A stretch of DNA of 46,347 bases, filler included, from Catajapyx aquilonaris (taxonomy: Eukaryota): assembly GCA_000934665.2 (NCBI GenBank). It is 2 parts of 2 records of this genome, joined end to end, with 100 filler letters (N's around TTAATTAATTAA, not from the genome) between each part and the next. Parts side by side here need not be neighbours in the genome. Positions count along the whole stretch, not along the records: positions 23,228 to 46,347 come from JYFJ02005742.1; 1 more part is not named here. The stretch is one strand, 5' to 3'. The notes under the pieces were generated by a model that saw nothing but the letters and a program-made list of their open reading frames with translations, made no database searches and was not told where the DNA came from. A program made the translations under genes and the position numbers. Positions within the stretch are counted from its first letter, which is position 1, and each line of letters starts with the position of its first letter. Below are positions 325-45,855 of the stretch, piece after piece.

Positions 325-1553
325 CTCTAGATGGCGTTTCCGGACATGGTTTCCTATGTCAAAAATGTTTGTCTTGGTCCCCTCTATCACCCCTGCAAGT
401 CTTTGCAGAGTTACAATAAACACCCTGTATAGTATACATACAGATTCTAGCAGTGCGAAAATGGAAAACACCTAATTTGGCATTACACTGAGTACTACAT
501 TGACTAGGATATTCTCCTTACCACTGATCTCCAATCTTCCGGTGTCTGATGCTTGCAATCAACCATAAACAAGATTTTAGTTGCAGGGTTACTTTGTATA
601 TTACACCAATACTAACTTCATAATTATGTGCAACTACATAAATTGACGAGTTTATTATGCAGAATTGGGCATACGGCCTATACAATGTAGCATTCGAAAA
701 TAAATGGGGTGTTTTGGCCCGGTTTTCTCACTACTCTGGTGCAATAAGTGCGTGAACAAAAAATAATGCAGAATCGGAAATTTTACATGTTGCCTCGGGG
801 GAAAATGCCAAATTAGCTTTGGTATTCTCATCAACATGTAAGTCAAGTTCCTCCTCAGCGCAAGGCATTCGCCTGAGATGCATCTAAACGGTCAAAATAA
901 CCGTCAAGTAGCCTATACCTCTATTATATTACCTTCTTTCAACACCCCATAACAATAACCATAGTAATCTGGCTCAAAAACCGAAGCTCCCAGAAGCACT
1001 TTTAGCACAATGCAACACTAATGGCAGCTTGTGGGGCAAGAGCCTTGTCACCTTTCAAGTGTCATTCAATGAAAGCAGATCTAATATTTCTGTTGTCATT
1101 TGACAAAGCTGACTGCAACATTCTTACTTCACATGATTGCAGCCCTACAGCAACGTGTTTTCAAATTGCCTCTATGGTTCCATCAATTCCTTCCTTTCTA
1201 ATAAGGAGATCAGACGCCCCTAGTGGACGAGGCAGTGTCGCCTTTGCCTTCACCTTGTATTATCATATTTTCTTCCACTACAGAGTGTAGAAAATCTGGC
1301 TCTAAATTCAAGACATTAGCACAAAAAATTGGGCCCAGGAATCAAGAGCGAACACCTGTCTCATACAGCTCATTCCTACAACTGGTCCAGCGTGCCAACA
1401 TATTGCGACCATTTATTTTCGTTGCTTCATGCTCTTAGGCCCTAATGGAAACATGGGAATGAATAATTTACTCGACACAAGGTACATGGACAATACTGAT
1501 ATATGAATCCATTATATCTCCCTAGTGAAGGAAACATTTATCGTAACATGGGC

Positions 1554-23127: not shown

Positions 23128-23227
23128 NNNNNNNNNNNNNNNNNNNNNNNNNNNNNNNNNNNNNNNNNNNNTTAATTAATTAANNNNNNNNNNNNNNNNN
23201 NNNNNNNNNNNNNNNNNNNNNNNNNNN
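23128..23227. other. Assembly gap with an artificial six-frame stop linker
   Basis: 100-position N block with TTAATTAATTAA embedded at 23172-23183. Confidence 0.95.
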
Positions 23228-23253
23228 TATCTTCCTTCCTTCCTTCCGCACAG

Positions 23254-25179
23254 ATCTATTTGGAGGGACCCTATGGATCAATGGCACAGACGTGGAGGGA
23301 CTACGAGGTCTCTGTCATCATTGCGGTAGGGGAAGGGGTGCTGACCTTCATATCAGTCCTGGATGATGTGGTGTATCACGGAAACATGGGCATCCCAATG
23401 CCCTGTCAGAAGGTGAGTGGTTGCCACATTTGGATCAAGTTCACCCCGTTCGACTGTAGTTTGTGACATGTTAACAAACTAGTTTAAACGGAATTAGTTA
23501 TAAAGTTTTCATAAAATGAAATATGGAGAAATTGGACTTGCCAGATCATTTGTTTTTTACAATGGCTTCCTCCTTACTGGTTTGTATGAAATTTTTCTTG
23601 AAGGTTTATTTCATATGGTGCACCAGCTCCCAGAAGCATTACGAGTGGATGATTGAATACATGCGAGAACTAGAGAGAATAGACACTGCTCGAATTCTGT
23701 CCACGTTCATCTGCATCACTGAAGCCACAGACAAGTACGACCTGAGGACCATCATGCTATACCTGTGCGAGGAGCACTTCCACAAGGTTCGACACAGGTC
23801 CCTCTTCACTGGTCTCAGCACCCAGATCCACTTTGGGGAGCCAGCCTACAGGACCTTCTTCACCTCCCTCAGGGCCATCTACCCCCACGTGAGCACTACC
23901 ATTATTCTTTGCTCTGGTTGTTGCATCCAGAGTGGTGGATTGCCCAAATTGGCTGCATACCAAGTGCTACCCAAAAGTTCCCGAAATGACACCAATACTT
24001 TTGAACCTCTTATAGTTTGTCGCTACCACTCCAGGTAGAGCTGCAGGTGACCTTTCTGAATATCTCTGCTAAGTGGCAGCATCTGCCGTTGAATTGATCA
24101 CTTTATGTGGGGGGGTTTTGTAGTGTCGTCTTCGGTCCATTCAGCGATTCTATCGGGGGTTAAATTGGTGACCTGAAAGACCAGCATCAAGTTTTGCTTC
24201 ATAAACTTACTTGACAAAGGTTCTCAAATCTACTTCCTTTCAGCTTAATTTTCATTTTCGGGAAAAGAAAAAGTTGCAGGGAGGTAAATTTGGCGAAAGA
24301 GGCGGCTGAGGGAGGACAGTCGAAGGAAACTCATTCAGAAGTGGCGCAACAACAACATCATGACTACGCCAGCTCACAATGCGTTTGCTGTGAAGCAGTT
24401 TTGGGCGTCACAGTCATGATGATTCTCCCTTACCCGCCTTTTCATCGAGATTTAGCTCCCTGCGACTTCTTCCTTTTCCCGAAAATGAAAATTAAGCCGA
24501 AAGGAAGGAGATTTAACTCCGTAAACCAGAACCACGAAGAATCACATCCTGTGCTGAGATCCCTAACAGAAAATGACTCCCAACCTATATACCAGTACTG
24601 TATATGTTACAATGGGAACTACTTCGAAGGTGACGGAGGAAAATTAGGTCTGTGGTATAAGCTAACATTTCAGGAAGAAAATTATTTCGCGAACTTTTGG
24701 GTAGAACCTCGTACATGAGAGGGTCCATCTGCCTGTTCAGAAAGGAAGCAACCATCATGGCAAGTTTCACATGTGGCCATGACTGTTGCTCGTTCTAATT
24801 GGTGTCTTCTCTTTAAATTGGTTGTTGGCATGAACAATCCTTACATTTCGTCTTCATGACCTACCCATGTCACACCACCCTGCCCTTGAGAACCGTTAGT
24901 TGCAAAATGGGGCGTTATTCAAATTGTCCGCCTTACTCTCAATTCCAGCATACCTGTTTTGCAACAAGGACTCCCTCCCAAATTGCATTGACATTGAGCC
25001 ATGTTTTCATGTAATCAGTTGCTAATCAATATTATTATCATTATTTTTTAAATTTGCAGGTGAAGAACTTTGGCGTGTACTGTGCAGGGAGCTCGAAGAG
25101 TAAGAAAGACCTGCATGATGTGATTGCCAGGGTGAACGAGACCAAAGGTGGTTACTTCGAGTTCATCATGGTGAAGTGA
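23254..25179 (+). CDS. Duox: 3' end (last three exons) of an upstream tandem Duox-like paralog, 5' part lost in the gap
   Basis: Exons 23254-23412, 23604-23888 and 25060-25179 have the same lengths (159/285/120 nt) and highly similar sequence to 43774-43932, 44161-44445 and 45109-45228. Frames are open and splice sites intact. Confidence 0.88.
23958..24713 (+). mobile_element. Internally deleted mariner transposon relic
   Basis: TA-flanked TIRs (ccaagtgctacccaaaagttcccgaaat / atttcgcgaacttttgggtagaacctcg). Transposase remnants are PPFHRDLAPCDFFLFPKMK (YSPDLAP.DF-like) and CICYNGNYFEGD. Confidence 0.88.
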
Positions 25180-27216: not shown

Positions 27217-30200
27217 ATGTCGCCCCCAGAGGTTCTTCTCCTGGTGCTCCTGGGCCTCCTGGCATCGAGGGCTACCCTTGCATACGGTCAGTGTCTGAAC
27301 AAGGCTCACTCACGGAGATGGCGTAACTTTCCCGCATATGCCGCTCGATTTCCCTGCTCCCCAGAAGCATTTATTTCGCCACATTTTTCGTCACTTTCCT
27401 CCATACAGAGTGTGTCAGAGCAGTCAGAGTCACGGGTCAAGAGCACGCAGGGGGGTGGGGAAAAATCGTAGGTGGCGACAACCCCTGTCAGTTTTATCAA
27501 ACAATTAGAAATACGGGAGTCATCAATTATTTTATTATGGCGTGACGTCACCTCCTTTCTGTTCGAATTGACTGGCGCGGACTGGCAGGTGCCGTGGGTT
27601 GAACGGCTTTTTAGCCTTGCGGGTTGCACTGAAAAAGGTGCTCTCATGAGCCAAAACCACGGGTCAATACGTGACGATAATCACCTTTATTTATTAACAT
27701 TTTTATATTTGAAAATGCAGGTTATTGTCGATATTTTTAAAAGGCAAAACAATTATAATCTCTGCTTCCGTGGAACCTAGGATGACTGTTCTTTTTCAAA
27801 TATACGTATATATAGCTATTTTAAAGGCGCTTTCAACTGTACCTTGCACTCTTAATTTATATGGTAAGTTTAAGCTTGAGAAATGCAAAATCTCTGGATG
27901 AGGGTCATAAACACTCTCGTGATAGACTACGACACTACGTGGCAGGTCAGTTAAGGGTAACATGCTGGTTTATAGGCTTCAATCAACATAGCAACAGTGA
28001 AGGCATTCATTTCCCCGAGAAAAGCTTGAAGTGATAAATCGTATATCCCGCATATAACGCTATCTAGCTTATAACGCTACTTTCAGGCTGCCCCTTGAAG
28101 AGCGTTATGTCGAGGTTTTACTGTAAGCACATCGGATATAAGCAAGTAGAAAGGTCGATCCCTTCATATTTCCAGCAGTGCCATTGTACAAGTTCAGTTG
28201 AATCCGGATATAACACACTTGTCTGCTATTCTGACTGCACAAATCTGCCCGCCTTTTTCCGCTCCCAGCGTCAGGCGCCCTCAAAAGGCGTCAAGGGCGC
28301 CCCTTTCGTAATTTTAGCAGGAGGGCAATGTTTCCCCCCCGTTGATACCCCACTGCTGCCACTATACAGTTACTACTACTACTTTTTTTTTGTTAATGTG
28401 GTTGTTTCATGCTTCTCTTCTCTAGCACAAGATGGTGACGAAGTAGTTCCTGAAGGCGATCCCGAAGTCCTTCCAGATCCCGAAGTAGTTCCTGAAGGTG
28501 ATCCCGAAGTAGTTCCTGAAGGCGATCCTGAAGTAGTTCCTGAAGGCGATCCCGAAGTAGTTCCTGAAGGCGATCCCGAAGTAGTTCCTGAAGGCGATCC
28601 CGAAGTAGTTCCTGAAGGCGATCCCGAAGTAGTTCCTGAAGGCGATCCCGAAGTAGTTCCTGAAGGTGATCCCGAAGTAGTTCCTGAAGGCGATCCCGAA
28701 GTAGTTCCTGAAGGCGATCCCGAAGTAGTTCCTGAAGGCGATCCCGAAGGCGGTGATTATGGCAGTCCCGGAGGCGGTGATTATGGCAGTCCCGGAGGCG
28801 GTGATTATGGCAGTCCCGGAGGCAGTCCCGAATCTCCTGGCGCAACTTGGTGAGATGAGGGCAGAACAAACAGTGCTGCCTTTCTGGTCATTTTCACCCT
28901 AACATTATATGGGATTAATGTAATGCCAGCATGCTTGCACAGTAACGTGTGCGAAGCTGGCTCACCACCTACCTCGGATCGAAGTGAAATTAATGGACTA
29001 TGCAGTACTCTCAATGGACTCTTTTGGATCTTTTTACTCTGCTCATTGGACCCCTCTAGTTTCAGAGATATTCAGGTTCAAAGTTTTCACGCCAAAACAT
29101 TTCAATTGCGACTCTGCTCACACCATTCGACATGGCCGTCTGAAATTAATGGACTATGTATTATGTCCCAAGGACTGCCAGACCCAGGACTCCGTGTCGC
29201 CAGATTAGGTGAGAGTATTCACCTGAAGAAACAGCTTTGCTCATATCCCATTGATATATTTGATCTGCTGTACTCACAAGGGAACTGGAAGAGTGCTGTA
29301 AATGGAGTTGGTGTATGAAACTTGGCACAATAATATAGGCAGGTAAGTTATTAAACAAAATGCAAGCTGTTTCTGCGAATGCACAAGGTCAAAAGTTATG
29401 ACCTCTTGGACTCACAAGGGGCACTTTCCAAGTGCCACTCGCGGATTTTCTTGAAATTCGGTGTATTGGTAACCCACCCAAATGGATGAAAAACTCACCT
29501 ATAAAGTTGCCTGCTCAAAATGACCCTGTGACCCCCTTTTTTTTTAGGGGAGCAGAGCCCCCTAGATGTTAAATTTTTTTTAGACCGACGAAAGGTTCTG
29601 TGAAAACTGTCAGACAGTGTCGTCTTACTTTTATGTTGATTGTGTACTTCCCACGTGCGACAATCTCGTAAAGATATGTGATGTCTCTGACCAGTTTGCG
29701 TCCCCCTCAGGCCCGTGATACAGTACGCCTGGTTTAAAAGAACGTAAATGGAGGACAGGCCTGCAGAATTTCAGACACCTGTTCCGTTTCGCTTCAAATT
29801 AGATAAAGATGACTGGTGTGCATTATGTCGTGCAGTAGCCTATTCCTAAAATGCAGTTGGTGTAAGGATCTCCTGTGATTCTCCCACTTTTTCATTGAAT
29901 CTACCCCCTCTGGAATGAGTTTGTTGAGTATAACCTGATTTATTAAGAGTTCAGGCTTTTGAGAGTTCTTCCGTACTATGTATCTGAAAATATGACCTTT
30001 TCCCTAAATGGTATTTCTCAATTTCTTTAATTTGCACGGTCATTTTACATACATTCCTCTGCGTTTTAGCTTGCGACTTGTTTTCATTATGTAAGTTATT
30101 ACTCTGTGACTACAAGATCTGTAATGTTTTTAGTTTAGTTTCATTTTGTCTTGAAAATTATTTCCATTGCAGTTTTTAGGTTTTACAAGTCAGTTTCGTC

Positions 30201-33200
30201 CAGTAAGAAAGCATTTCGTTTCTGTCCAACGTTGCTCTATTGACATAAATATGTCTTGAGAAAATGTCGTTTTTTATAAGCACAAATATATTTTGTCCTT
30301 AAGTTGTGCTTTAGTAGGTTATACCCCTATTTCTGTTCTCTTTTTGAGACATGTACGTATGTAGCACTGTCATCAGGAAAGCTCGTGCGCCTGGCTAGAG
30401 TGCTGCCACCGTGTGATCAGCCACCAGTGCGTTGCTAACCGAGATATCTTGGCATACCTCGAACTTGTGCATCGGGTAACTTGCAGTTACATAGTGTAAA
30501 CTACAATAATTACAGAGGCTCGTAACATGTTTCTGTTAATTTCAGATGGCTAGGTCGGATGGGGCAATTACAATCGCAGTTGAAATGCTTTTTTGGGCAA
30601 CCTTTGAAGCCAAATATCTCTGAAACTAGTAGGGTCCAATGAGCGGGGTCAAAAGGTACAAATAGTCCATTGAGAGTAGTGCATAACCCATTAATTTCAT
30701 TCCGAACCGCCGTGGGTGGCGAGCCAACTTCACACTTTCGGCCACTTCCTTGAAACCGAATATTTCTGAAACTATGCGAGTCCAATGAACGAAACGTATA
30801 GACCTGGTAGTCCTCGGGACGTAGTACATAGTCCATTAATTTCAGACGCCCACGTCGAATGGTGTGCGCACAATCGCAATTGAAATGTTTGGGCATGAAA
30901 ACTTTGATCCTGAATATCTCTGAAACTAGAGGGGTCCAATGAGCGGGGTAAAAAGATCCAAAAGAGTCCATTGAAAGTACTACATTGTCCGTTGAGTTCA
31001 CTTCGATCCGAGGCAGGTGGTGAGCCAACTTCACACCCATACGTTGGATGGGTTAAGCATGGCAGGAAGATAATATTGTACAGTGAAAAACACATCAATG
31101 AAATTTATTATCAATACAATAATTCATAATGGTTCTTAGGTGCGTAACTTTTGTCCTGCCAAATGTCAATTTGAAAGCATATTATGTGGCCTTCAGAAAA
31201 ACTTAATCGGTTTGATGAAATATTGCACATGCTGCATCGATGCATGGATGAGCTTGCATTCCTGCACTTAACAATGTTTGTAATGTTTTCAAGTGAGAAT
31301 AATTCCTCATTACCTGAAGCCACTTACAAGAAAGCAGCAAGGCAATGGCCACCGAATGTATGTGGAACATGGAAAGAAACGTCAGGAGGTAAGTATAATG
31401 AGTGTGTCAACCATTGTATTGATGCAGTAGCCACCCTTTCTGAGTTTGTGCCCATGTGATTTGAAAGTACAGTCCCACTTGCAGATTTTGGGTATCGTCA
31501 TAATAACATTAGCTTTCAACTGGATTACCCAAGGGAACAAGATATGAACTCAGGAAGGGAACTGAAATGGTGGTGTTGACCCCCCTTCCTCTGTTCTTTC
31601 CAGTGAACAAACCACGACGAGATGTGTGGGGCAAAACAGGGAAAAAGGAAGGATTTCTTCGATGGCTGATTGATGGCTGCGACTTTTACGATGATTCTTG
31701 CAAACCAGCGCCATTCAAGATGATTGAGTACGCCCGATTTGACGGATTTGGCAACAGCAGAGCCTTTCCAGAGAGAGGATTAGCAAGTGAGCGCTCCTTT
31801 TTTTAAAAAAAAAAAAAGGCTGAAAATAAGGCAGTAAGCTTATTAGGATTAGAAAAAGGGCAGCGCATACTGTGACACTGACCGTGTTCTTTTCTGAAAA
31901 ATAATCTGCTTCTCATTAGAGAGAAGGCAATAGTGTGTGTGATAGTGACTGCCGTAAGACAGTGTCATGCAAAGTGATATTCCTACGTTCGAAATGCGCC
32001 TACCTTCTTTTTTTGCAACTGTTGTTTAGCCAGCCAGTGATGACTCCGGCCATGCATCCAACAGCCATCCCATCCTGTTCTATTCTGTTTTGTTATGTGG
32101 CATGTTTGGAATGGATCGCCAGTCCCGCCAGTCCTGGAGCTCCCTATAATACATTATGTTACGAATTTCATGTCACTACTACAGTATTATTTTATGGTCC
32201 CATCACACAGGGCACTTGGATGGGCAGTACATATTCCCTGTGTGTTGTGAGATAGCTAAACTCTGATGATGATAATGATAATGATAATGATATTGATGAT
32301 GATGATGATGATAATAGTGAAAAATTTTGACCTCAGGATCAGCCATGAATCAAGTGATTACCTACAGTTATGGAGACAAAGTGTCAGCAGCAGACACTAC
32401 ATCAGGCCGCCCAGATCCACTGGAAATCAGCGCGAAGTTGTTTGGTTCTGAACATAGTGCAACCAAGTCAACAGAAAGCGGAAGATCAGTCCTCCTGCAT
32501 TACTTTGGTGAGAATTTATCGCCAATTTACATCACTTGTGGTGATTTAGAGAATATTGTTGTGGTCCGTTTCTCGAGTTGATTAGCTGGGTAGGAAAAGC
32601 ACGTGAAAGACATTGTTTGTCCATTTTGGGATATTGGGAAGAACTCAACTCAGCAGAAACATTATTCAAGTGCTTAGTACCGGTTGTTTTGAGCAAAGAA
32701 AATGCGTGAGCATGTGTCCATCCGTCTTCTCACTTCTGGACAAACTTAACCACATTGACTTACTTCCTGTATTCCCACAGTCGTACTCATTTTCTGTTTA
32801 TTACATTATGACTGCATCAACTTACACAGGGAAATATGTTGTCGAGGAGATTCTGAACAGTCGTCAGGCAGCATGCCCTATGGAGCACCTGGACATTGGC
32901 CCTGGTGATGAGCCAAAGATGCCATTCAAGAGGACCATATATGACCCTACAACTGGAACCAGCATGACCAACCAGCGTCGGCAGCTTAACCTGGTGACGC
33001 CCTGGATTGATGGCAGTGCTGTTTATGGGACTTCTCGCATGTGGGCCAATGTGCTGAGGACACAGCACGATGGCTATTTGGACCCAGATGGGAAGCTGGC
33101 CACTGATCCATCTGGAGAGTACCCGGAGTACAACTGGATGCGAATGCCCTTTCGCAACGACCCATCCGTCGTCAACCACTCATTCTTCAAGCAGGAGAAG

Positions 33201-35979
33201 CAACGCTTTTCAGCATCCCGTCTTCGTGGATTTGGACATGTCAATGGCAACGAGAACCCAGTGATTTTTGCCATCTCGACACTGTGGTTTCGCTGGCACA
33301 ACGAGGTGGCACAGTACCTCAGAAAAACCCATCCGCACTGGCCCAATGAGATATTGTTTCATGAAGCACGCCGCTGGGTCATTGCCACGATGCAAAGCAT
33401 CTTCCTGTACGAGTGGTACCCAGCAACCTTCCTGCAGCCCCTCCCGGCTTACCATGCTTACGATTTTCTGGATGACCCACAGATAGAGGCCATGGTGGCA
33501 GCTGCCACCCTTAGATACGGACATGTGACCATTCCCCCAGGTCAGTTGCTTATACACCTTTTCTCTGCTCCTCCTTCCAGCTCTGCCTCTCTGATAGTAT
33601 ATTATCCGCTACACATGCCCTTAATGATTAGGTCACGTTGGAAACCGAAACGTATGTTGTCGTCTCCCTTGTTCATTTTTGTTGAACTGGATACACTGGC
33701 TTTAAAAAAGTAATATTTGGTTGAGTGTATTTTTCCTCGTCTAAGTAGTACGATGTTTGTTTGCTACAATATTATTGGAAAGAGTTATTTCCCCTTAGTT
33801 GGAGGAAGGGTAATACGAGGTAATCCTCTCTGGCGATTTTAACGCTCGTGTTGGAATGGAACGACAAAGCTCATTTTTAAAATCCTAATGAGGTTTCCAC
33901 AGTACCGCTGTTAACCGAAGCAGTAGGGGTGGAGTGGATAGGGTGTCCGACTGCTAATCGGGAGGTCCTGGGTTCGAATCCCGGGCCGGCAACCCTGACC
34001 GTTGTTTTCCACGGTCTTTCTAGGATAATTCCGGGGTCGATTCCGTATATATTTTTTTTTTCATTACCCCACGGGGGGAGTTATACTATGGCCCCTAGTC
34101 TGATGACCCGGGGTAAGCTATCCCGGGGGCAATCACCATGGCAGCATACGTAAAAGGATAGCAGTAAACAACCAGTTACCCCAGGGGGCAAGCTACCCTG
34201 GGTCACCAGACTATATACCTATACTCCTTAGGGGGGGGGGGGGGGGGGGTNGGGAGGGGATGTGCAAAGTGCAAGTGCAATGTCTCTAATCGTCATTTTG
34301 TGAACTCCCCCGGGTGGCTTAGTCTGCCGGAAATTGCCACCCGAAACGAAGCCAGAGATGGCCCAACTCTGCACGAAAGAAGGTGGGAACCCCGGGTGGG
34401 GATTGAACCCGGGACCTTAACTTCCGTGGGCGCGCGCGTTACCGCGGCGCCACTCCGTCTCCCCGTCGATTCCGTATAATAGGCCACAGCCGCTTCCTTC
34501 CTTCCCTATCCTTGGAGGTTGAAAGGCAATGCTGGGCCAACCTCCTTAAATATCAATTATAAAGTACTGCAGTTAGTACATACGGTTAGGTAGTACGGCT
34601 GTTAGAAAACAGACTGCGGTCTTGGGCGGAGGACAATAAGATATTACCGTAAAACCTGGCGGGTTTTAGAAGGACCAGATGCTGTATGGACCACATATTC
34701 GTTCTCACAGAGTTGATACAGAACTATACTGCGAAGAAAAGGGGAAAACTCTACGCACTGTTTGTGGATCTTGTGAAAGCGTTCAACTCGGTAGAGCGCA
34801 GCAAGCTTTTTTCAAAGCCATTGACTCGGGGAGTCAGTCAAAGTAGGTTGCACATGCAAGTTTTGTCCCGTTATAAGTACTATACTGATCTTTCGCCTGA
34901 TATTGGACTCTCCCAATATTTCCTTTACTCTCTCCCCCTCCCATATTATGTCCGTTTGGTGAGCAATCTCAGAAATGCATCATATTCTCTTTATGTTGAA
35001 AACTACAAATTCCTACAAATTCAGCTCCCCCACTCGCACTTCCTGTACACTCTGTAATAGTAACGATAATTGGTCTCTTTATCGCTTAATTTACGATTGC
35101 CACTTCTTTCGGGCAATTACAAGGGATAAACTGGTAGGAATTCCAAAACTTCCTCAGGGTATTCTTTCCGCTGGTTGTGCTTATTATTTATTGATAATGG
35201 TTGCCTTCCATCACATCCTCTCTTCCCACCAGCCAATTATATTTATCAGTAGTTGTACTTTTTTTTAAATGCACATGATTGGCTGACAGGAAGCGATTTC
35301 GGGGCTGAAGGTTTCCATACCTTCCCGGATACTTTGTACTTGTCGTTTGAACGCAATTATCTCCGTAACCTATTAGTAACTAGTCGAGTAACTAAGTAGA
35401 CTATCTATTAGGCAATGCAGTATATCTCGAAAACTGTGCTTGGCAGCACAATTCCAAGTCCAGATATGGAATCAGCACAGAAAGTACTATAGGAATCACT
35501 ATTCACATCTTCAGAAAGAACACAAATATTTAAAAAATCAACGGTATATCTGCAAAACACGTCTATTATTTTCTCGCGAGCCATGTATGACCCAGGATTG
35601 AAACTGAACATACTGAACCTTGTGCCGGTCACAACATACTAGTGTCACCAAATGCAGCTGATGTACCGCAAATTCATCACTAATTATTGTCGGGGTCCTA
35701 ATTCTTGGGCATGTGTCTAGAGCCAGTGACCAATGAAATGTGAAAATAATTTTAGTTACATTTTAGAGAAAAACGAATCTTCTATAGACTGATTCTGCAG
35801 GTGTTTCACGCATCAGCACTCCCTATTATCCGGGTGCAGATTATCCGTGTTGCGCATCGCCATAAAATAACATCTTAAAGTAAATGTCCAAAAGTATGTC
35901 AATATGTTTCGCCAACCTTGGTGGTATCCCCCCCCCCCCCCCTAAGAGGGCCCATGGCTCGAGCACGGGGTACAAATTA

Positions 35980-36011
<32 letters not shown>

Positions 36012-39000
36012 GTTTCACTAACCAAGTAATATGAGACTTTCCCCAGAAGACCAATTTAAAATCTATCCCATGGTAAGTTTCATTATTTTTGATTAACTTA
36101 AACCTTATTTAAAGCATACAGCATACAGCATGTACTGTAGTTCTTTTGAACCTCTGAACAGCTCATTTTACTGCATCTAGGACCATTTGCGGATCATCAA
36201 TGTTTTACGATTATCATGGTATCATACGCCGATGCACATTCAATAGCACAGTTGATAATAATAAGGAGTGTACAGTGCACGTACCTTCTCCGTTATGAGT
36301 ATACATCGAGATTTCCTTCTCAGGTTAATCGGCATGTGCAAGGGACAAAATATGAAATGATATTTACGTAGCAACTTCTATTGTCACCTAACTGACTGTA
36401 TAAAACTTTCCAGAAAGTCACAGGGTCATATTTAAAGAACATCTGCAAAAAAGGGGGGGGACGACGACACGAAATGTGTGGCTGAATAATTATGATGTAT
36501 ACATAAATATTACGTACCTGTAACTTTTATTGCAGTCATCAACATGATGCACCCAAGCCATGAATTCTGCAAGTTACAACCGTTCAGAGTATCTGGTAAA
36601 GTGAGTGTCGGAGGTGCCCGCTTGTGCCAGAGCTACTGGTTGGGACAGGATGTTTTCCTGCAGGAGTTGGACTCTCCTACTGGACAACATGACTCGGTCA
36701 TGCCGGAGTACATCTTCTTGGGAGCAGCCACCCAAACGCCCATGCCTTATGGCATGAAAATGAATGACGATATGAGAAGTAGCTCTCTTCTTGTCCATGA
36801 CTTTTTTCTGGATATTCTGACAGGAGTGGTGCATGTCTTTACCTTGTTCCTATACCTCCAAATTTTAGAGTACATGTACGGTCCGATGTCATTCAGCCGT
36901 CGGGACCTGGCCGCAATTGACATCCAGAGGGGCCGGGACTGGGGTCTGCCTTCATATGAAGAGGCTCTCAGATTATATGGGCTCATGAGTTATTTGGAAC
37001 GGAAGAAGCTGGACCCAAACAAGATGGTCGATATTAATAAATGGGTGAAAGACTCTGCAGTCTCTCCACAGGTAAGTGAGAATCACACTCCTTGTTGTTG
37101 TTGAGCATCAATTATGAGTACTTGCCCCCATATTCTTTGTTGCCTTGCAGCTTTTAAAGGAAGCAGATGACCTTTACAAAGGCAAACCTGTTGACCTGTT
37201 GGTGGGTGGTCTCCTGGAGGGCAGGAAAGGGTATCCTGGACCACTGTTTGAAGAAATGGCGAGGAAGCAGCTCCTGTCCATACGTGATGGAGACTACTTC
37301 TGGTTTGAAAATGCTGTCAACAAGTGAGAAACTAATAAGTGCTAATAATTATTTGTGTCGGTTATGCGTTCAAGAGATTCAGTTGTTAAGGGCAATAATT
37401 ATAGTTCAAGTTTCAAACTGCGAGCTTCAATGCCACTCATTCATTCGAAATAAATTTCGCTCTTTTCAAGCTGGTGATAATTCCAAATGAAATAATTATT
37501 GAAGGCTGAAATGTTTGCTCAATGAAATATTAATTTACTTTACAGACGGTTCAGCGCAAAGCAGATTGCCCGCCTCCGTGAAGTATTTCTTGGTGATCTC
37601 ATTCTCTTTTTGTTTGAAGTTGAGGCGGAAGATATTCAAGAGCGTGTTTTCTACCTTCCTACTAAAACAGGTACGTTCCGGAAGTGGAGATGATTTCCAC
37701 TGGGCATCCATGTTTTAAGCTGATGTGTTTTCCTTACACCATTACTCCGCATCCAGAAATGCTACCAGAAGGACACCCGTGTGAGACAAATTTCCCAAAT
37801 ACGGAGAGATGTTATGTCCCTGATCCCAATTGTGAAGGGGGTCCGATGAAGAAGGAAGGTGACATTAATTGGAATTGTTATCACGAAAAGGACACTTCGA
37901 GTGACCCTGACAAAATGGAAGAATGCACACCTCTGCAGACGATGTCATACTTTGACGGCAACATTGTTAGTGTCGTCTTCACTTGTGTGGTCTATTTCTT
38001 GGTCCTGGTGGCCCTGTGGGGACTGCTCAAGTTCCAGATCGCATCGTCCGAGCAGGAGTGGGAGGTGAGGGTTCCAGAACTGCTGGGACTGGTCAGCCTG
38101 TCCAGTGTCTACGGGACGAACATGCCTACCTTCGCAGCCATGGAATTTCAGGGAATGAGAGGGGGCTCCAGGTCTGTCGTTCTCCTCTTCAACACGAAGG
38201 ACAAGACCATCGAGTTGTGGGGACCTCTGGGAGGGGAGATCCGGACACTCAAACTTTCCCTCTTCACCAAAGTCAACATTGTAATGGGGGATGATGGCCA
38301 GCACCTCATCATCAAGGTATGCCCAGTACTAAGCAATTATTTACGTGCGAAAACAGGAGCCAAATTTCAACAAATTTATTGACTTGTTCATTGCTGTTGC
38401 ACTGTGTGCACAGTGCAGATTGTCTTGGAATAGGAACCTAAGACAGAGTGTCCCCCTTATTGTCCCCCACACCCTTTCAGGTGCCACACGAGTATGACAT
38501 GGTGTTGGAGTTTGTGACGTCCTCCCACCGAGATGTTCTGATGTCAGCCTTGGCTCACTTTCTGGATGAGAATAACATAGGCTATCTCTGCCGGAATGTG
38601 AAGCTTAGCGATGCTATGGCGAACGCCATCACCTTTGAGGACCGACAGGATATCCTGAAGCGTTACTTCAATGTCATAATTCTTCAGGCGCAAAGGGTGT
38701 ACAAAACTACAGCAACATTGCTCAGCCCGAAGGAAATGCGCAAGCGATACATGGAAGTGGCCAACGTGCAGCTTAACGAGCTCGAATTTGCGGAGGCCCT
38801 TGGGATGAGCTCCAAGTCTATCTTCGTTCAAAAGGTACTCGTGACGTGATGGGTTTCAGAATATATTTAGCTAACATATTTTCGTGACATTGGAAACGTG
38901 ATACAAGTTGTTGATTCCATGACTGCTTCATGACTGTACAAGGGAGACCAATTTTTTAAATTTAATAATCCTGCCTGTCTAATGCATGGTAGTATCCTTG

Positions 39001-40563
39001 GGCACAGGATTTCCACCTGTTATGCAGGAGAATCCGTGCAATTTCCTCCAGTGCAAACATGTGCTGAAACCCTGTGAGTGGTTAACGCAATGTGGTATTC
39101 TCATATCCACTATGAATGCATTCACACTAGTTTTACTGGCCGCTTGGTGTTAAATTATATTTTTGAGAGCTCTGGCAGACATATGTCCGTTTCACTCTTG
39201 CAATCGTAGAGTGGTACCTGATACAGTTGTACTCTTGGACCTGTGTTTCCTAGCTTATTGCAATGACAAGGTCGCATGAGAGAAGTTTTAATGAATGCTT
39301 TCTCGCAGTTGTTTCATCTGGTGGACAGCGACAAAGACGGATATGCAAGCATACGTGAATTCCTGAACTTCTTCCTTGTCTTCAGCAGAGGTATGATGAT
39401 TGTGCTGTTTCACATTCACCACTGAATCGTAGCACATGATCTTACTCGTTTGGGCTGGTTCAATTGGGGATTTCCCCAAATGCACAGGAGCACCGCAGTC
39501 GTGAGTCATTCGAGATGTCTGAAATTAATGCAAAACAATCGGAAGTTTTATAGATTGATTTTGGAATTGATCATGTGGTATATGTATGTGTACATTTTCA
39601 CAGTGCTACTTAACCTTTGTCCTACACTACAGAGTGAATGAGGCCTTTTCTGCATCTGTCCCAGTTGATTAAGCAACAACAATAATTTTGAGTGTCAGTC
39701 CTGCGTTGCCCTTGCACATACAAATGTGCTGTTAAATTCCAGCTACATTCACAGCTAGCCCTTCTTTTCTACTAGGTACTGCCAAAAGGAAGGTGAACAT
39801 GTTGTTTGAGATGTATGAGACCCGTGACACCCGTGGGAAACTGGGCTTTGCAGAGTTCAAGCAGATCCTAATGTGAGTGCTCAAAGGTGCTGAAGATGCG
39901 AGTGGAAAAGCGCTCTTATTTTGATTTTGTTTTTTGTGGCCTTGCAGAAACTTGGCTGACATATCAAATGCCAATGTCAATCGCCAGAACTTGTCTGAAG
40001 CAGTAGATGAGTTGATGAAGAACGCTGGGATATTTGAACAGACAGAGTTCAGGCCAATCGATCTGGAGAACGTTCTGCAGAGCAACAAGGACCTTCTTGG
40101 ATACGCCCACCTGGACCTGTATGGGCCAAACATCCCAGAAACAGGAGGATCCGTGGCCATGGCCATCGAGAGCAAGAGGCTGAGCTACTTCGATGCAGCC
40201 ATGCTGGGAGCCCTTGACCTCCACAAGTTGTTGCTTCTTCTTCACTTTTTTCTTTTTTTCTTAATCACTGTCAGAAACGTTATGGTGCCTTACGTGTGTT
40301 CTTTCGTGAATGTAGTTTGGAACAGGAGCAGAAATCTGAAGTAAGTAAGAGAACTAGCAGGGGAGACAACGTGGTCCTCCTGACCCTGGAAAAAGTGAGG
40401 AAGAGCAAGTTGGGCTCCTTGCTGACTGTCATACAACTTCACTGGGAGAAGATCTTGTGTTTTTTTATTGTCCTCGTAGCCTCTGTATGCGCACTGCTGT
40501 ATGGCTTAAGTAAGTCTTTCATTATTTAATATTATGCATAAAATTTGTGTGCTACTTATTCTG

Positions 40564-40595
<32 letters not shown>

Positions 40596-43500
40596 GGCTT
40601 GAGGTCTTGAAACTGCTGCATTGCAACATTAAGTGATAATGTAACACACCTGGAAGTGGATTCACTGAGATAGGTTGCTTTAACTCAAGGGTGCTCAGGT
40701 GTCTACCTGCGCCATGACATTATTTTTGTATTTCCTTAATCATCACTATTTTGCTTCTTTTCAGTGGTTGCTTCAGCACCATTCCATACGCTCCAAGCTT
40801 ATGTGTTTGGTCCGTCCTGGACGGTATCTGTACTGTCAGGAAATGCCGTGTTGTACCTCCTTTTCTTCCTTCCGCTCACCAACTGCCGGAACCTGCACAC
40901 ACACATGCGAGAGACATTTCTCTCCAATGTCATACCCTTCGACTCCATGCTTTTCATTCATAAAGTCATTGCCTGGATGGCATGCCTCTTCATGAGTAAG
41001 TACTCAGTATATCAGCAGTATTTGCAGGGAATGTGCATGCCACCTGATGTAATTATGTTGCTCTTTTTTATTTGCAGTCGTGCATGTGATATGCAATATT
41101 GTTACTTTTGCAACCCTGTCAGGAACTGAGCCTGAGGAAATAGACTGCATGACTTGGGTGCACCTAGAGTGAGTTTGTTTTGGTATTATTAGTACATTCA
41201 CTACACTTCTTGTGTTCCTTTCTATTTGGCACATAATTATCACATCCATTTTCACATGCAATATTTTACAACATGCATTTTGCCATCAACCAATCTCGTC
41301 ACCCAATTGCGAGGCTGCAATGAAGGCTCATACATGTACAGAATGTGCCTGTGGATGATGCCGCACTGTAGCGTACGCCACAGATTGCACTGGAAATTAC
41401 AATCACAAAGTACACCATGGCATTTAATGTGCCAGATGCAGTAGTGGGAAGCATTCATTGCCGGCAAGCCACACTTAATAAGAAACTGCTTTCAACACTC
41501 ATAGTCTTAGGAGTTACCAAAGTGCTTTATGTTACGTTGAATTGAAAGCAGGTGTAAGGGCCATTATACTGTTGTGTGGTGAACACGTCTTCTATTGCAG
41601 TGAGTTACACGATCATTTCTGAGCCACTGCGGGATAGCCAGGACCAATAACAATTGGCACTTTTAAAAATGCGAATGAACACTGATCAGAGTGTATCTCA
41701 GGGAGAAGTCTTACTGGATGTTCAGTAACATCACAGTATCGTTAAGTGTTAGAAGGCTTTTGGTATGTTTTTGCTTTGCACAGCAACACTGCTCATGAGC
41801 AGTAACATGAATAAGGCATTGAAGTATAACTTATTAGTATCATTGTTCACACTTTTAAGGAATGTCCATTTATTAAGTCAAACTTGCCAGAACCATGTGC
41901 AATGCTGAGATGTGCCAATTATGGATGGAACATATAGATCAATCAGAATGCATAATATTTCTGAATAATAATTCTGATTTTTATGCCATGTTTTGCTTTG
42001 TTTTCAGGACGCATTTGTGGGTGGATTTTGATTACTTCATGTGGCGCACCACAACTGGTTTGACAGGCAATGCCATGGTCATGATAATACTGGTCATGTA
42101 CTTCTTCTCACTCCGAATCTGTCGGCGGAAAGCCTTCCGCTGGTTCTGGGGCACACACAAAGCTTACCACATCATGTACCCTTTGATGATCTTGCACATC
42201 GTGGGAGACTCTCTGAAGGTAAAGTGCTGCCTAACGGTGTGTATAGTTCATGGAAGGCAAAAATAAATATGAAATTCATCGATTGCAACATAATTATCAT
42301 ACCAATTATTTAAGTAGAGAAAATAATACAACTGACATAATTTTACTCATGTCCTTTCCATGTTTTGTATTATTGTATTTATATCACTTGTACTTACTCT
42401 GCCCTTCTTAGGTCCCTGACCACTCCTGGCTCCTGATGACTCCTCTGATCATCTTCTACTTGGATCACTTTGGCACCCTCAGTCGCCAGAAGAGGCCCAT
42501 TGAAGTCATTGACTTTGAGCTACTACCTTCCAGTAATATGCCTTCTTGCATGATTGATAATATTATTATTATTATTAAGGTTGGACGGTGTGATCATTGG
42601 CAAATCCAGACCAAGTGATTGATCCTTGCTATTCCTTGTTGGTGGCAATGCACCACACAGGACTGCCCCATTCCACAACCATAGTTTCTGTGGAGCTTGG
42701 TATGGAAGATGGTTAATAAAGCCTCGTGCTTTATAGGGGGAAGGTCAAAAAGCACTTTTGGCCAATTAAACACGCATGGACACACGCACCATGTTATTAT
42801 CGAGGGTCGGCAAATTGTTGGGTTTACTAACGATCCTGCGTCCCAGCCAAAAATAAATGAGAATGGACACTCAGGTGTAGCCACGTACTGTTATTTGGAT
42901 GGATTAGCTGATCCACCAAAATGAAAGGTGACAGGCTGACTTAGAAATTAAGAATGAATAATAATGATAATTCAAGAGGGAATAGCGGGTCATTCACCCC
43001 AGCAACGGGTGTAAATGAGACGACCCATTGGAAGGAATAATATTAAGGCCAGGGTCATTTGCATGGAGTGACTATCATTTGCCCAATGTAACATTGCAAT
43101 GCTATGTTCATTCCACTTTTGGGAGGAATTCTTGAGCCAATTTTGATGCCAAATGGTCCTTTCATACTAGGTGCTGCTATTTCCCAAACAATTTTTTTTT
43201 TTCATGATTTAACTCGTTACATGGAATTTAATAACATGGCAGCACTTTCTCCTTTATCCAGCTCCAGGCCACTCCTCATTGAAATGGCACCTTTGCAATA
43301 CTCCATTAGTGACGAAGTAATACATGTGCGTGTTATCAGTTAACATTTGATGAAAACAATAAGGGGGAAATACTCTGATGTCCATGGCGATTGAATAGTC
43401 ACAAGAGATGAGCACATATTGTGATTAAAACCGGATCCTAATGCACAACTGACTCTATACCTCCAGACATGATCAAGCTTGTTGTTCGTCGCCCTCTGAA

Positions 43501-45012
43501 CTTTGAGTTCAAGTCTGGCCAGTGGGTGAGGATGGCCAGCAGCGGACTGAATGCAGAGGAGTTCCACCCCTTGACCATCGCCTCTTCTCCACGTCAGAGC
43601 GTCATGAACTTCTACATCCAGGTGCTTGGGCCCTGGACCTACAACATGAGGCACCTGTACCAAACCAGGAAGACCAGGAGGAAGAAGTACCCCAAGGTGA
43701 ACTATACACAGTCAGCTGCTTCTTGTGACTGCAACCTTCCTCTAATCTTCCTTCCTTCCTTCCTTCCGCACAGATCTATTTGGAGGGACCCTATGGATCA
43801 ATGGCACAGACGTGGAGGGACTACGAGGTCTCTGTCATCATTGCCGTAGGGGAAGGGGTTCTGACCTTCATATCAGTCCTGGATGATGTGGTTTTTCAGG
43901 GCAACAAGGCCATCCCAATGCCCTGCCAGAAGGTGAGTCGTATCCACTTATTGTAGTGAACTGTCAAATTTTTTGTTCTGACAAATCGATGAAAAGATTG
44001 TCACAGGACATATAATCGTTGCACTAGTAAGTCCAAGTCAACGACAGGAAAAATGAGATAATTTCATTAGCGTATGTTGAAAAAATTGGACTTGTAAGAT
44101 CATTACTGGTTTGTTTAAACGAAACTGAACAATAAGTAATTCTTATAAATTTTCTTGAAGGTTTATTTCATATGGTGCACCAGCTCCCAGAAGCATTACG
44201 AGTGGATGATTGAATTCCTTCAAGAACTAGAGAAGATAGACACTACTCGCATACTGTCCACGCACATCTGCATCACTGAAGCCACAGACAAGTACGACCT
44301 GAGGACCATCATGCTGTACCTGTGCGAGGAGCACTTCCACAAGATTCGAAACAGGTCCCTCTTCACTGGTCTCACCACGCAGACGCACTTTGGGGAGCCA
44401 GCCTACAGGACCTTCTTCACCTCCCTCAGGGCCATCTACTCCCACGTGAGCACACAGCTTGTTCTTTGCTCTGGTTGCTACATCCAGAGTGGTGCACTGC
44501 CCATGTCCGCAGTGTAAAGACCCATACACACAGGCCGTCGACGGTTTTGGTCTTTGGTTGCGTTGACGCCGCGGACCAATCATGACCCATGTAAACAATG
44601 TGTTGCGCATGTTTACATGAGTCATGATTGGTCTGCGGCATCAACGCGACCAAAGACCAACACTGTCGACGGCCTGTGTGTATGGGCCTTTAAGTAAGAG
44701 GGATGAGGGATGAGGATTGTTCAGTCCAGCCACCAGTCTAAAAAGGAAGCAACCATCGCATATGGGGCCATGACTGCTGTAGCTTATTGTTCCAATTGGG
44801 GTAGATGATATGAACAATCCTTCAACGTTGCCTTCATTTCCTATACCCATGTGTACTTGGACAGCACCCTGCACTTGCAAAATTGGTGAACCATGAAATT
44901 GTCCACCTTACTCTCAAGTACAGCATAACAGTTTTGCAAGTACTGTACAAGGCTCCCTCCCCAATAGCGTGGACATTGTGCTATGGTGGCATGTCATCAG
45001 TTATGCATTATT

Positions 45013-45082
<70 letters not shown>

Positions 45083-45228
45083 CCATCATAATTTCTGAAT
45101 TCGTGCAGGTGAAGAACTTTGGCGTGTACTGCGCAGGCAACCTGAAGAGCAAGAAAGAGCTGCACGATGTGATTGCCAGGGTGAACGAGACCAAAGGTGG
45201 TTACTTCGATCTCATCATGGTGAAGTGA
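27217..45228 (+). CDS. Duox: Divergent dual oxidase (Duox)-like protein, 24 exons, about 1803 aa: signal peptide, repeat domain, peroxidase-homology domain, TM, EF-hands, 6-TM heme domain, FAD/NAD(P)H domain
   Basis: Exons 27217-27286, 28426-28849, 31294-31388, 31604-31786, 32337-32507, 32830-33540, 36536-36778, 36869-37071, 37151-37323, 37546-37670, 37757-38316, 38481-38834, 39309-39390, 39776-39872, 39948-40226, 40316-40509, 40765-40995, 41078-41168, 42008-42218, 42412-42532, 43467-43696, 43774-43932, 44161-44445 and 45109-45228. They total 5412 nt, are all GT-AG and have compatible phases. Motifs: EYARFDGFGN, NLVTPWIDGSAVYG, QRGRDWGLP, IRDGDYFWFEN, DSDKDGYASIRE, KSGQW, HPLTIASSP, GPWT, EGPYG. 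Exons 1-3 and two weak donors (36779, 40227) are less certain. Confidence 0.88.
28440..28817 (+). repeat. Coding 24-bp tandem repeats: (EVVPEGDP)x12 then (G/E-GGDYGSP)x3
   Basis: gaagtagttcctgaaggcgatccc units, where the variants in the 28482-28745 array are at third codon positions, followed by ggaggcggtgattatggcagtccc units. Confidence 0.95.
28947..31040. repeat. Inverted copies of a roughly 235-bp repeat bracketing Duox-like intron 2
   Basis: 28947-29181 is the diverged reverse complement of about 30803-31040. A further diverged unit lies at about 30535-30790. The sub-motif tgaaattaatggactatg is shared. Confidence 0.8.
33914..34510 (+). mobile_element. tRNA-derived SINE (third family) interrupted by another SINE
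   Basis: B box ggttcgaatcc at about 33971, then cctgaccgttgttttccacgg. The element resumes after the insertion with ggccacagccgcttccttccc. Confidence 0.7.
34050..34464 (-). mobile_element. tRNA-derived SINE (head type B) with poly(A) tail, nested in another SINE
   Basis: Head and body align with 21695-21863. The 14-bp TSD gtcgattccgtata lies at 34036-34049 and 34465-34478. There is an internal imperfect hairpin at 34096-34213. Confidence 0.85.
34662..35140 (+). mobile_element. Non-LTR retrotransposon (LINE) relic
   Basis: GFRRTRCCMDHIFVL...LYALFVDLVKAFNSV is a reverse-transcriptase motif. It is followed by a degenerate C-terminal zinc knuckle CTLC...C. Confidence 0.8.
40565..40592 (+). repeat. 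(TG)n microsatellite
   Basis: Read directly from the sequence. Confidence 0.9.
44517..44690. mobile_element. Palindromic MITE (about 175 bp) in the last Duox-like intron
   Basis: aagacccatacacacaggccgtcgac... / ...gtcgacggcctgtgtgtatgggcctt. It is flanked by TA and is palindromic over almost its whole length. Confidence 0.85.
45013..45088 (+). repeat. (CAT)n microsatellite just upstream of the last exon acceptor
   Basis: Read directly from the sequence. The paralogous intron has only a short attattatcattatt at this position. Confidence 0.9.
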
Positions 45229-45855
45229 GAATTCTTCTTGCGACGAGTGGCTAGGATTGCAGAGTCAACCCCACACGCCTTTCCTACTAGCCACATGTTG
45301 TGTTTGGTTCCTTATTATTATGTTTTTGTAGCCAGGTGCATACAGCAGAGCAAGTCGGTCAGAAATGACGGATTGGATGTGCTGTTCGTCTCCAGGTTAC
45401 TTTTGTTTGTTCTGCGTAATAAAGGGTGGTTAAACTCCCAATCCATATTATTATTATTAATTACTCCACAAGGCCCAGAGGCCTTCTTCGGGGGACACAC
45501 ACTACATCTTTACAATGGTATCTAGTATTCACATTTCAACATCACAAAAAGTCAAATTCTTGATTATCAGGTCAAAGAAACGAGCCAACATAATATGATT
45601 GTATCTTCTTTAGATAGTGACCGAAAGAGCATGTGTAGCAGGTGAGGTGGGGTTCGAGGTATTTTGACAAGATATTTTTTCCTCACATTTCGAGAGAATA
45701 ATCTACATTCATATTATATCAGATGGAACATTATTAAGTCAGGGGTTCGGCGCTCCAGCACAGTGTATATGGGTGATTCTCCAAAAACTTACCATTTTCA
45801 AAGCAAGAATTAATGAATTTCAAAACTTGTTTTAAAAATCTGAAAAAATTCTCAC

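Follow-up and report, generated by a model that had tools for sequence, protein, structure and literature searches.

An intact, divergent dual oxidase paralog of Catajapyx aquilonaris that is probably not a normal NADPH oxidase

Dual oxidase (Duox) has been studied as a source of peroxide in gut immunity, in cuticle and eggshell cross-linking and in wound signalling. A Duox-like gene of Catajapyx aquilonaris (GenBank assembly GCA_000934665.2) raises the question of what such a protein does once residues of its oxidase chemistry have been replaced. The gene lies on the plus strand at 27217-45228 of the window, a stretch of 46,347 nucleotides (nt) in which two parts of the genome are joined by 100 filler letters and positions 23,228 to 46,347 come from JYFJ02005742.1. 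It is a real, intact, selectively maintained and divergent Duox paralog, one of at least two close copies. Judged by its residues, the encoded protein is probably not a normal oxidase of nicotinamide adenine dinucleotide phosphate (NADPH), and its H2O2 output from NADPH is most likely low or nil. Whether it is a redox-silent or nearly silent protein, kept for its ectodomain and its assembly, we regard as evenly poised. The loss of reactive oxygen species (ROS) output, from the residues, and the role that replaced it are both things that we infer. Architecture and cofactor residues are kept, but residues of the NADPH site, the O2 centre and the second EF-hand are lost, and this combination suggests a non-canonical function.

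Cofactor residues kept and catalytic residues replaced

We mapped the exons of the gene onto human DUOX1 (PDB 7D3E) with phmmer and took residue roles from the available text of Wu 2021 (PMC7794343). The haem ligands given there (H1130, H1144, H1225 and H1238) are all kept, as H1372, H1386, H1464 and H1477; the histidine pairs of the model lie 14 and 13 residues apart, as in a four-histidine, six-helix ferric reductase. R1214, which contacts flavin adenine dinucleotide (FAD) according to the same text, is kept as the FAD-phosphate residue R1453, and the position of R1131 holds Lys, as in most relatives. The C118-C1165 disulfide described there, by which the peroxidase domain is stapled to the membrane domain, is kept as C315 and C1407. 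Retained as well are HPLT and GPWT of the FAD subdomain, as in HPFT-type FAD binding, the Thr-Gly signature of M4 (GLTG) and a first EF-hand, whose exon matches Pfam EF-hand_1 at 7.4e-5. The peroxidase-like domain has DUOX1 as its best PDB match (1.4e-33) and carries the Ca loop TPWIDGS, the Glu of GNEN and the proximal RYGH. A preliminary description of the locus had listed the four haem histidines, the FAD motifs, EF-hand 1 and the Ca loop as kept, and alignment and Pfam agree with it.

R1087 and H1148 form the O2-reducing centre of human DUOX1 (available text of Wu 2021, PMC7794343). At the R1087 position the model has no basic residue (WTVSVLSGNAV), and H1148 is replaced by N1390, leaving no canonical O2-reducing centre. 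The NADPH glycine loop reads IIAVGEGVLTF in the model versus LVGGGIGVTPF in human DUOX1, with Ile, Thr and Pro lost. R1424 and R1495, which with R1036 hold the NADPH 2'-phosphate and so distinguish NADPH from NADH in the same text, are the two 2'-phosphate arginines of the dehydrogenase domain, and they have become Ser and Glu. GVFSCGP is changed to GVY-CAG, with Ala at the Cys position of CGP, and the C-terminus ends in IMVK instead of an (E/K)-N-F type ending, so that the aromatic residue is lost. Thus, although an NAD_binding_6 domain is detected, the canonical loop, the CG[PST] Cys, the C-terminal aromatic and the arginines of an NADPH site are missing. The last exon found no PDB chain at E<=10 with phmmer. 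The exon of the second EF-hand carries a one-residue insertion and gave no Pfam EF-hand match at E<=1, whereas a control 31-amino-acid (aa) segment of crayfish Duox2 matched at 8e-6; one recognisable EF-hand is left where a dual oxidase has two. At the peroxidase distal site FFGQ has become YFGK (Q to K) and the distal Arg is Asn. As the distal His is Glu in all arthropod relatives too, the change at the peroxidase site is a minor one. The alterations that the preliminary description had seen in the NADPH site, the O2 pocket and EF-hand 2 were therefore recovered by residue mapping and Pfam; those it had seen in the peroxidase distal site hold for the Q-to-K and R-to-N changes, and the loss of the distal His is common to arthropod relatives.

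How unusual these changes are was judged against 31 Duox rows (animals, two fungi or protists, and unnamed sources), which were all the full-length matches fetched; one row lacks the dehydrogenase end, and counts there are out of 30. The canonical residue or motif is present in 29/31 rows for R1087, in 30/31 for H1148 (Tyr in a limpet Duox), in 29/30 for the glycine loop, in 28/30 for R1495 (Lys or His in the other two) and in 28/30 for the Cys of CGP. Among 214 collected proteins, 66 resemble the membrane and dehydrogenase part, and most of these have a canonical glycine loop; the exceptions come from a single horseshoe-crab gene (eight isoforms), from two unnamed proteins that are truncated and from a fragment of 130 aa.

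These counts bear on a simple alternative, namely that the gene encodes an ordinary active Duox whose substitutions are tolerated, lineage-specific variation. Such a protein would be expected to show the full architecture and the purifying selection that we find, and single substitutions of this kind do occur in presumably active relatives (R1424 in 6/30 rows, H1148 to Tyr in the limpet, R1495 to Lys or His in 2/30). However, none of the other 30 rows with a dehydrogenase domain combines the changes, and a degenerate glycine loop recurs in one row alone, that of the horseshoe-crab protein, which itself lacks one haem His and the FAD motif. In addition, mutation of the csNOX5 equivalents of R1087 and H1148 affected reoxidation by O2 (cited in the available text of Wu 2021, PMC7794343). 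We consider an ordinary active Duox improbable.

Near-invariant columns, defined as those in which no more than two of the 31 rows deviate, were kept by the model as follows:

Peroxidase domain: 63/74
Loop 0 and EF-hands: 16/20
Membrane domain: 18/33
FAD subdomain: 19/23
NADPH subdomain: 22/27

Retention differs between the membrane and peroxidase domains (Fisher p 0.0012), and by whole domain the heaviest remodelling is that of the membrane domain. Its 15 lost columns include, from aligned positions, the M2 Arg stretch, the M3 G-H-x-x-N-x-Y stretch and the Gly after the last haem His. Membrane-domain identity is 26-32% between the model and its relatives versus 55-63% for canonical pairs. A selective pattern acting as a whole-domain effect in the NADPH subdomain was considered and rejected; the losses there are few and fall at motif residues.

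Gene model and exon anatomy

Exon borders were chosen manually on the basis of open frames, GT/AG sites and phase. The resulting model has 23 exons and 1788 aa without an internal stop, and ends in TGA at 45226-45228; every one of its 22 introns is GT-AG, with compatible phases throughout. With full-length Duox proteins as queries, tblastn and blastp place the Duox modules colinearly on the plus strand. The model comprises a signal peptide, an acidic repeat, a peroxidase-like domain, EF-hands, a haem domain with six transmembrane (TM) helices, and FAD and NAD domains. Pfam searches of stop-to-stop open reading frame (ORF) pieces on the plus strand at 27.2-45.2 kb returned the expected dual oxidase families in the correct order: An_peroxidase (1.3e-43 and 9.4e-10), Ferric_reduct on one exon (1.4e-5; 25.6 bits, under the curated 28-bit cut-off), FAD_binding_8 (1.5e-10) and NAD_binding_6 (1.7e-6). 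The sequence context is animal DNA of about 42% G+C with introns and interspersed repeats. An intact Duox of full architecture had been proposed for the locus, and the stop-free, phase-compatible model with its ordered domains upholds it; of the proposed 24 exons and roughly 1800 aa, the open frame stands and the exon count is corrected. The exons are:

E1, 27217..27286 (+), start codon and signal-peptide-like leader MSPPEVLLLVLLGLLASRATLAY; donor GTCAGT; inclusion in the mRNA predicted
E2, 28426..28849 (+), acidic Pro-rich repeat, PEGDPEVV about 13 times and then GGDYGSP 3 times; phases fit E1 and E3
E3, 31554..31786 (+), pre-peroxidase segment KKEGFLRWLIDGC and start of the peroxidase-like domain
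E4, 32337..32507 (+), peroxidase-like domain up to the distal motif YFG/K
E5, 32830..33540 (+), peroxidase-like core with Ca loop TPWIDGS, VNGNEN, proximal RYGH and Cys315; Pfam 1.3e-43 and PDB alignments
E6, 36536..36778 (+), peroxidase-like domain (ARLCQSYW), preceded by a 2995-nt intron packed with repeats
E7, 36869..37071 (+), peroxidase-like domain (FSRRDLAAIDIQRGRDWGLP)
E8, 37151..37323 (+), peroxidase-like domain (LLVGGLLE ... RDGDYFWFEN)
E9, 37546..37670 (+), end of the peroxidase-like domain
E10, 37757..38316 (+), Cys-rich linker, helix TM0 and start of cytosolic loop 0
E11, 38481..38834 (+), loop 0
E12, 39309..39390 (+), EF-hand 1 with canonical loop DSDKDGYASIRE; Pfam EF-hand_1 7.4e-5
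E13, 39776..39872 (+), degenerate EF-hand 2 (YETRDTRGKLGFAEF, one extra residue)
E14, 39948..40226 (+), loop 0; 3' end uncertain, weak donor GTTGTT
E15, 40316..40509 (+), pre-M1 and M1; 5' end uncertain
E16, 40765..40995 (+), M2 and M3; R1087 lost (WTVSVLSGNAV); CRN, PFD and inner-haem His1372 kept
E17, 41078..41168 (+), M3; outer-haem His1386 kept; H1148 to N1390; loop C Cys1407
E18, 42008..42218 (+), M4 and M5; GLTG, R1453, His1464 and His1477 kept; HG to HI
E19, 42412..42532 (+), M6
E20, 43467..43696 (+), FAD-binding subdomain (HPLT, GPWT); Pfam FAD_binding_8 1.5e-10
E21, 43774..43932 (+), degenerate NADPH glycine loop AVGEGVLTF
E22, 44161..44445 (+), NAD-binding subdomain; R1424 to S1662 and R1495 to E1733; Pfam NAD_binding_6 1.7e-6
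E23, 45109..45228 (+), GVY-CAG in place of GVFSCGP; ends in IMVK and then TGA

The key residues compared above all lie inside exons and none at junctions. Good splice sites and matching phases connect E1 and E2 with E3, and inclusion of E1 and E2 in the mRNA is predicted by splice logic only; since the 24-nt repeat is open in every frame, the openness of E2 proves nothing. The repeat itself is plain in the DNA (24 nt x 13.2 and 24 nt x 3.4, with a weak Trypan_PARP match only in Pfam), and the added repeat ectodomain of the preliminary description is real to that extent. Its short Tyr/Gly/Pro part presumably recalls cuticle proteins that are cross-linked via tyrosine. For E18, an alignment-driven acceptor at 41947 was dropped for 42008, which matches the phase of E17 and the canonical sequence. 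In the E14/E15 region, which holds the one weak junction of the model, a two-intron solution gave no improvement over a single weak intron; alternative splicing or an error in a homopolymer may be the reason. Within 40226-40316, CAG at 40272-40274 comes after 40 nt of pyrimidine tract and makes a strong-looking acceptor, for which there is no good donor in phase.

Several further features were observed in and around the gene. Intron 5 (33541-36535, 2995 nt) is crowded with very high-copy repeats, with a summed contig depth of about 147,000 versus about 20-90 for single-copy sequence, and also carries a reverse-transcriptase fragment (34653-35057, RVT_1 1.2e-5). Intronic microsatellites include a long CAT/ATC run at 44990-45090, shortly upstream of the last exon, and a (TG)n stretch at 40555-40600, after E15. 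Elsewhere in the window, a multi-exon major facilitator superfamily transporter gene occupies 1500-15300 on the minus strand; its ORF piece 8161-8442 matches MFS_1 (2.3e-11) and Sugar_tr (1.4e-10), and by eye it looks to be of the organic-cation-transporter type.

Tandem copy, selection and relatives

A second copy lies about 2 kb upstream of the gene, immediately behind N runs at 23128-23171 and 23184-23227:

Upstream tandem copy, last three exons only, 23254-23412, 23604-23888 and 25060-25179 (+), from tblastn, blastn and splice sites

The rest of this copy may exist in the genome and be absent only from the assembly. The two copies have the same splice sites and the same odd motifs (AVGEGVLTF, CTSSQ, GEP, YCAG and IMVK-stop), indicating that these substitutions predate the duplication. 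By blastn they are 89-94% alike, with similarity confined to exons and about 14-60 nt of flank, and the introns are otherwise unaligned. Over 187 codons the Nei-Gojobori method gave a non-synonymous rate (dN) of 0.053, a synonymous rate (dS) of 0.141 and a dN/dS of 0.376, from 22.5 non-synonymous and 15.5 synonymous differences (Fisher p 0.003). Both copies have been under moderate purifying selection since the duplication. The duplication claimed earlier is thus confirmed for these three exons, and the dN/dS ratio, which the preliminary description had proposed as a measure, came out significantly below 1. Inside the last intron of the upstream copy (24215-24718, plus strand) lies a 167-aa ORF without a Pfam match at E<=0.01, which by eye we take to resemble the C-terminal part of a mariner-type transposase.

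Public sequencing runs hold further traces of the locus. E3, E16, E17 and E19 are covered completely, and E6, E9, E10, E18 and E20 partly, by contigs that match the window without a difference; in one run the contigs lie on repeats and on no exon. One 317-nt contig, present in three DNA runs from a single sample, links the end of E5 with the start of E6, with 50 other letters between the exons and 12 mismatches on each side; it represents a copy of about 92% identity whose intron measures 69 nt instead of 2995 nt. Among the variant letters checked in E21 and E22, 5/8 match the upstream copy. The family may have more than two members, or the variants may be divergent alleles.

Decay is the second alternative that these data address. 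A non-functional remnant would consist of unexpressed, drifting duplicates, or of a model flattered by our choice of splice sites, and the lack of an RNA run among those listed, the weak E14/E15 junction, the repeat-laden 3-kb intron and the N runs beside the upstream copy would all suit it. Yet the frame stays open for 1788 codons on a branch of 1.8-2.6 changes per site, and the GT-AG introns with their compatible phases, the exon-confined similarity of the copies and the window-identical contigs that span several exons all speak against decay. The usual marks of an unprocessed pseudogene are absent, there being no stop in 1788 codons, 22/22 GT-AG introns and a dN/dS of 0.376. A remnant is therefore very improbable, and the earlier claim of a gene maintained rather than decaying is sustained by the open frame on its roughly threefold-long branch, by the dN/dS ratio and by the exon-confined similarity.

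The length of that branch was measured in two trees. The end branch of the model is 1.77 against a median of 0.59 under LG+G4 (34 rows), and 2.63 against 0.85 under a mixture model (21 rows); on these alignments the gene has changed at roughly three times the rate of its relatives. Its placement varied. Holding the model with the pancrustacean Duox2-like clade raised the likelihood 4.3 log units above a free quick search; holding it with the shrimp-type Duox group was not rejected (approximately unbiased test, p-AU 0.25); and holding it with the horseshoe-crab protein scored 2.8 units above the free search and was not rejected either, although the mixture-model tree does not join the two and sets the model between the two main Duox groups. 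The phylogeny suggested by the preliminary description thus brings out the long branch, and its placement of the gene differs by constraint and model. DUOX proteins have been divided into a Type 1 restricted to Ecdysozoa and a Type 2 of patchy occurrence (available text of Massari 2022, PMC9421330), and by similarity the nearest relatives of the model are of the Type 2 kind.

No ortholog with the same substitutions was found, either in a HMMER scan with the peroxidase exon or in word-index searches with E5, E21 and E22; the preliminary description had suggested looking for such orthologs. The scan with the peroxidase exon (237 aa) against 1.84 billion representatives gave 4015 matches at E<=0.001, none above 45% identity. 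The word-index searches gave 2 matches for E5 and 16 for E22, the best of them 60% (a crinoid Duox2-like protein); for the glycine-loop exon E21 they gave 8 candidates, none at E<=10. The best full-length matches are "dual oxidase 2(-like)" proteins of weevil, sawfly, damselflies and crayfish, followed by Duox of a chytrid fungus, amphioxus and shrimp. The seven relatives inspected first are all canonical at the motifs.

Proposed roles and comparison with known systems

If the protein is a maintained pseudo-enzyme, it would still fold like Duox, with two haems and probably FAD, and its ectodomain would remain stapled to the membrane domain through the Cys pair. It would no longer be a Ca2+-triggered NADPH:O2 oxidoreductase. 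Candidate roles are those of a partner or regulator of the active Duox/DuoxA complex (a tetramer) and of an organiser of the apical matrix.

Several observations weigh against such a reading. The glycine loop of the model retains G-x-G. R1424 is variable in ordinary Duox, being Arg in 24/30 rows and Pro in shrimp Duox, so that the claim of substitutions at canonical motifs holds for most positions as near-invariant ones and is softened at this one. The NADPH subdomain as a whole is well kept, to the same extent as the peroxidase domain (p 0.76). Retention of the cofactor domains (19/23 columns of the FAD subdomain and all four haem histidines, on a long branch) is as compatible with continued redox use as with a scaffold. 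The dN/dS of 0.38 signifies moderate constraint only, and covers 187 codons of the last three exons. The E14/E15 junction (40226 to 40316, an 89-nt intron) has a weak donor and a weak acceptor and admits several other frame-keeping solutions. Sequencing runs that match 36400-45300 comprise four of DNA, all from a single sample, and a fifth of unknown kind, with no RNA run listed. Finally, in the available text of Zhang 2013 (PMC3591440), knockout of Dictyostelium NOXC, which lacks a residue of the H1148 type, lowered ROS. The maintained non-ROS function first proposed for the gene is consequently supported in its maintenance, by dN/dS and the open frame, and weakened in its selective pattern, by the 22/27 columns of the NADPH subdomain and by the NOXC precedent.

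The same cofactor retention brings in a third alternative, a transmembrane electron carrier with another donor or acceptor, or else a weak, Ca2+-insensitive oxidase. Electrons might pass, for example, from NADH through FAD and the two haems to an acceptor different from free O2, such as a metal ion, a matrix substrate or the protein's own peroxidase-like domain. HPLT, GPWT and the FAD-phosphate Arg persist with the haem histidines despite the long branch, and near-invariant columns are kept in both the FAD (19/23) and the NADPH (22/27) subdomains. The arginines that have become Ser and Glu are said in the available text of Wu 2021 (PMC7794343) to separate NADPH from NADH in human DUOX1, and the His-119-type residue lost here separates NOX from metal reductases in that of Zhang 2013 (PMC3591440). 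On the other hand, loss of the glycine-loop Pro, the CGP Cys and the C-terminal aromatic speaks against canonical binding of any pyridine nucleotide. NADH-using relatives of the reductase fold are generally known to keep those Pro, Cys and aromatic residues too, which counts against a carrier, and the sequence names no acceptor. We hold the carrier to be a real if minority possibility. A broader formulation, which on sequence we think fairly unlikely, would have a Duox-derived protein with FAD and two haems that has moved off NADPH and O2, as either a carrier with a new donor and acceptor or a redox-silent apical anchor. In the carrier form NADH would be the obvious donor after the Arg-to-Glu change, with the acceptor at the remodelled outer pocket; in the anchor form active Duox and peroxidase would cross-link the protein through tyrosines of its Tyr/Gly/Pro-rich N-terminal repeat.

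Returning to the pseudo-enzyme, a silent or re-purposed protein would be a natural separation-of-function form of Duox. With it one could see how the Duox ectodomain and assembly act in the absence of peroxide, or what the haem wire does in other chemistry, and counts of "Duox" copies in arthropod genomes would not be counts of oxidases. In the literature searched we found no prior description of a catalytically degenerate Duox kept by selection, nor of a catalytically dead one.

Known systems resemble the model in different parts. Arthropod Type 2 DUOX proteins, "dual oxidase 2(-like)" of Hetaerina, Ischnura, Cylas and Procambarus clarkii (Duox2), have the same domain order and the highest overall identity to it (34-35%). 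They have in common with it a pre-peroxidase motif of the KKxGFLxWLxxGC type, and one damselfly Duox2-like protein also has an N-terminal low-complexity extension. Unlike the model, they keep GGGIGVTPF, CG[PST], the C-terminal aromatic and the Arg and His of the O2 centre. Human and mouse DUOX1-DUOXA1 (PDB 7D3E/7D3F and 6WXR) give the best solved structure for every tested exon except the last. The haem ligands, R1214 and the C118-C1165 pair of human DUOX1 are conserved, and its R1087, H1148, R1424, R1495, glycine loop, CGP and C-terminus are changed; the proximal His (RYGH) of the peroxidase-like domain is kept in the model, unlike in human DUOX1.

A partial precedent for the O2 pocket comes from outside Duox. 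According to the available text of Zhang 2013 (PMC3591440), His-119 (the H1148 position), Thr-178 and Gly-179 mark ROS-making NOX proteins as against metal reductases, with exceptions that lack the His-119-type residue in species with several in-paralogs, such as Dictyostelium NOXC. As in the model, the O2-pocket His is lost there in one copy of a multi-copy family, and so its loss is neither unprecedented nor proof of inactivity. Such in-paralogs differ in being NOX rather than Duox, and that text reports no loss of the NADPH site in them. Multiple copies of DUOX itself are on record, with two or three in some chelicerates and in Daphnia (available text of Palmer and Jiggins 2015, PMC4833078).

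The closest parallel in kind is a degenerate arthropod Duox paralog of the horseshoe crab Tachypleus tridentatus, "dual oxidase 2-like / 1-like" (XP_076336211 and seven further isoforms). It has GGGRGGPLL as its glycine loop, FGS for CGP and Gln at the R1087 position, and it has in common with the model the YFGK variant of the peroxidase distal site, at an identity of only 27%. Unlike the model, it has Arg in place of the H1225-type haem ligand and YCFP in place of HPFT. Degenerate paralogs of Duox are thus present in one further arthropod at least, where the degeneration is of another kind and has gone further. The Tachypleus protein looks like a second, independent degenerate Duox, suggesting that degeneration of Duox may have occurred more than once.

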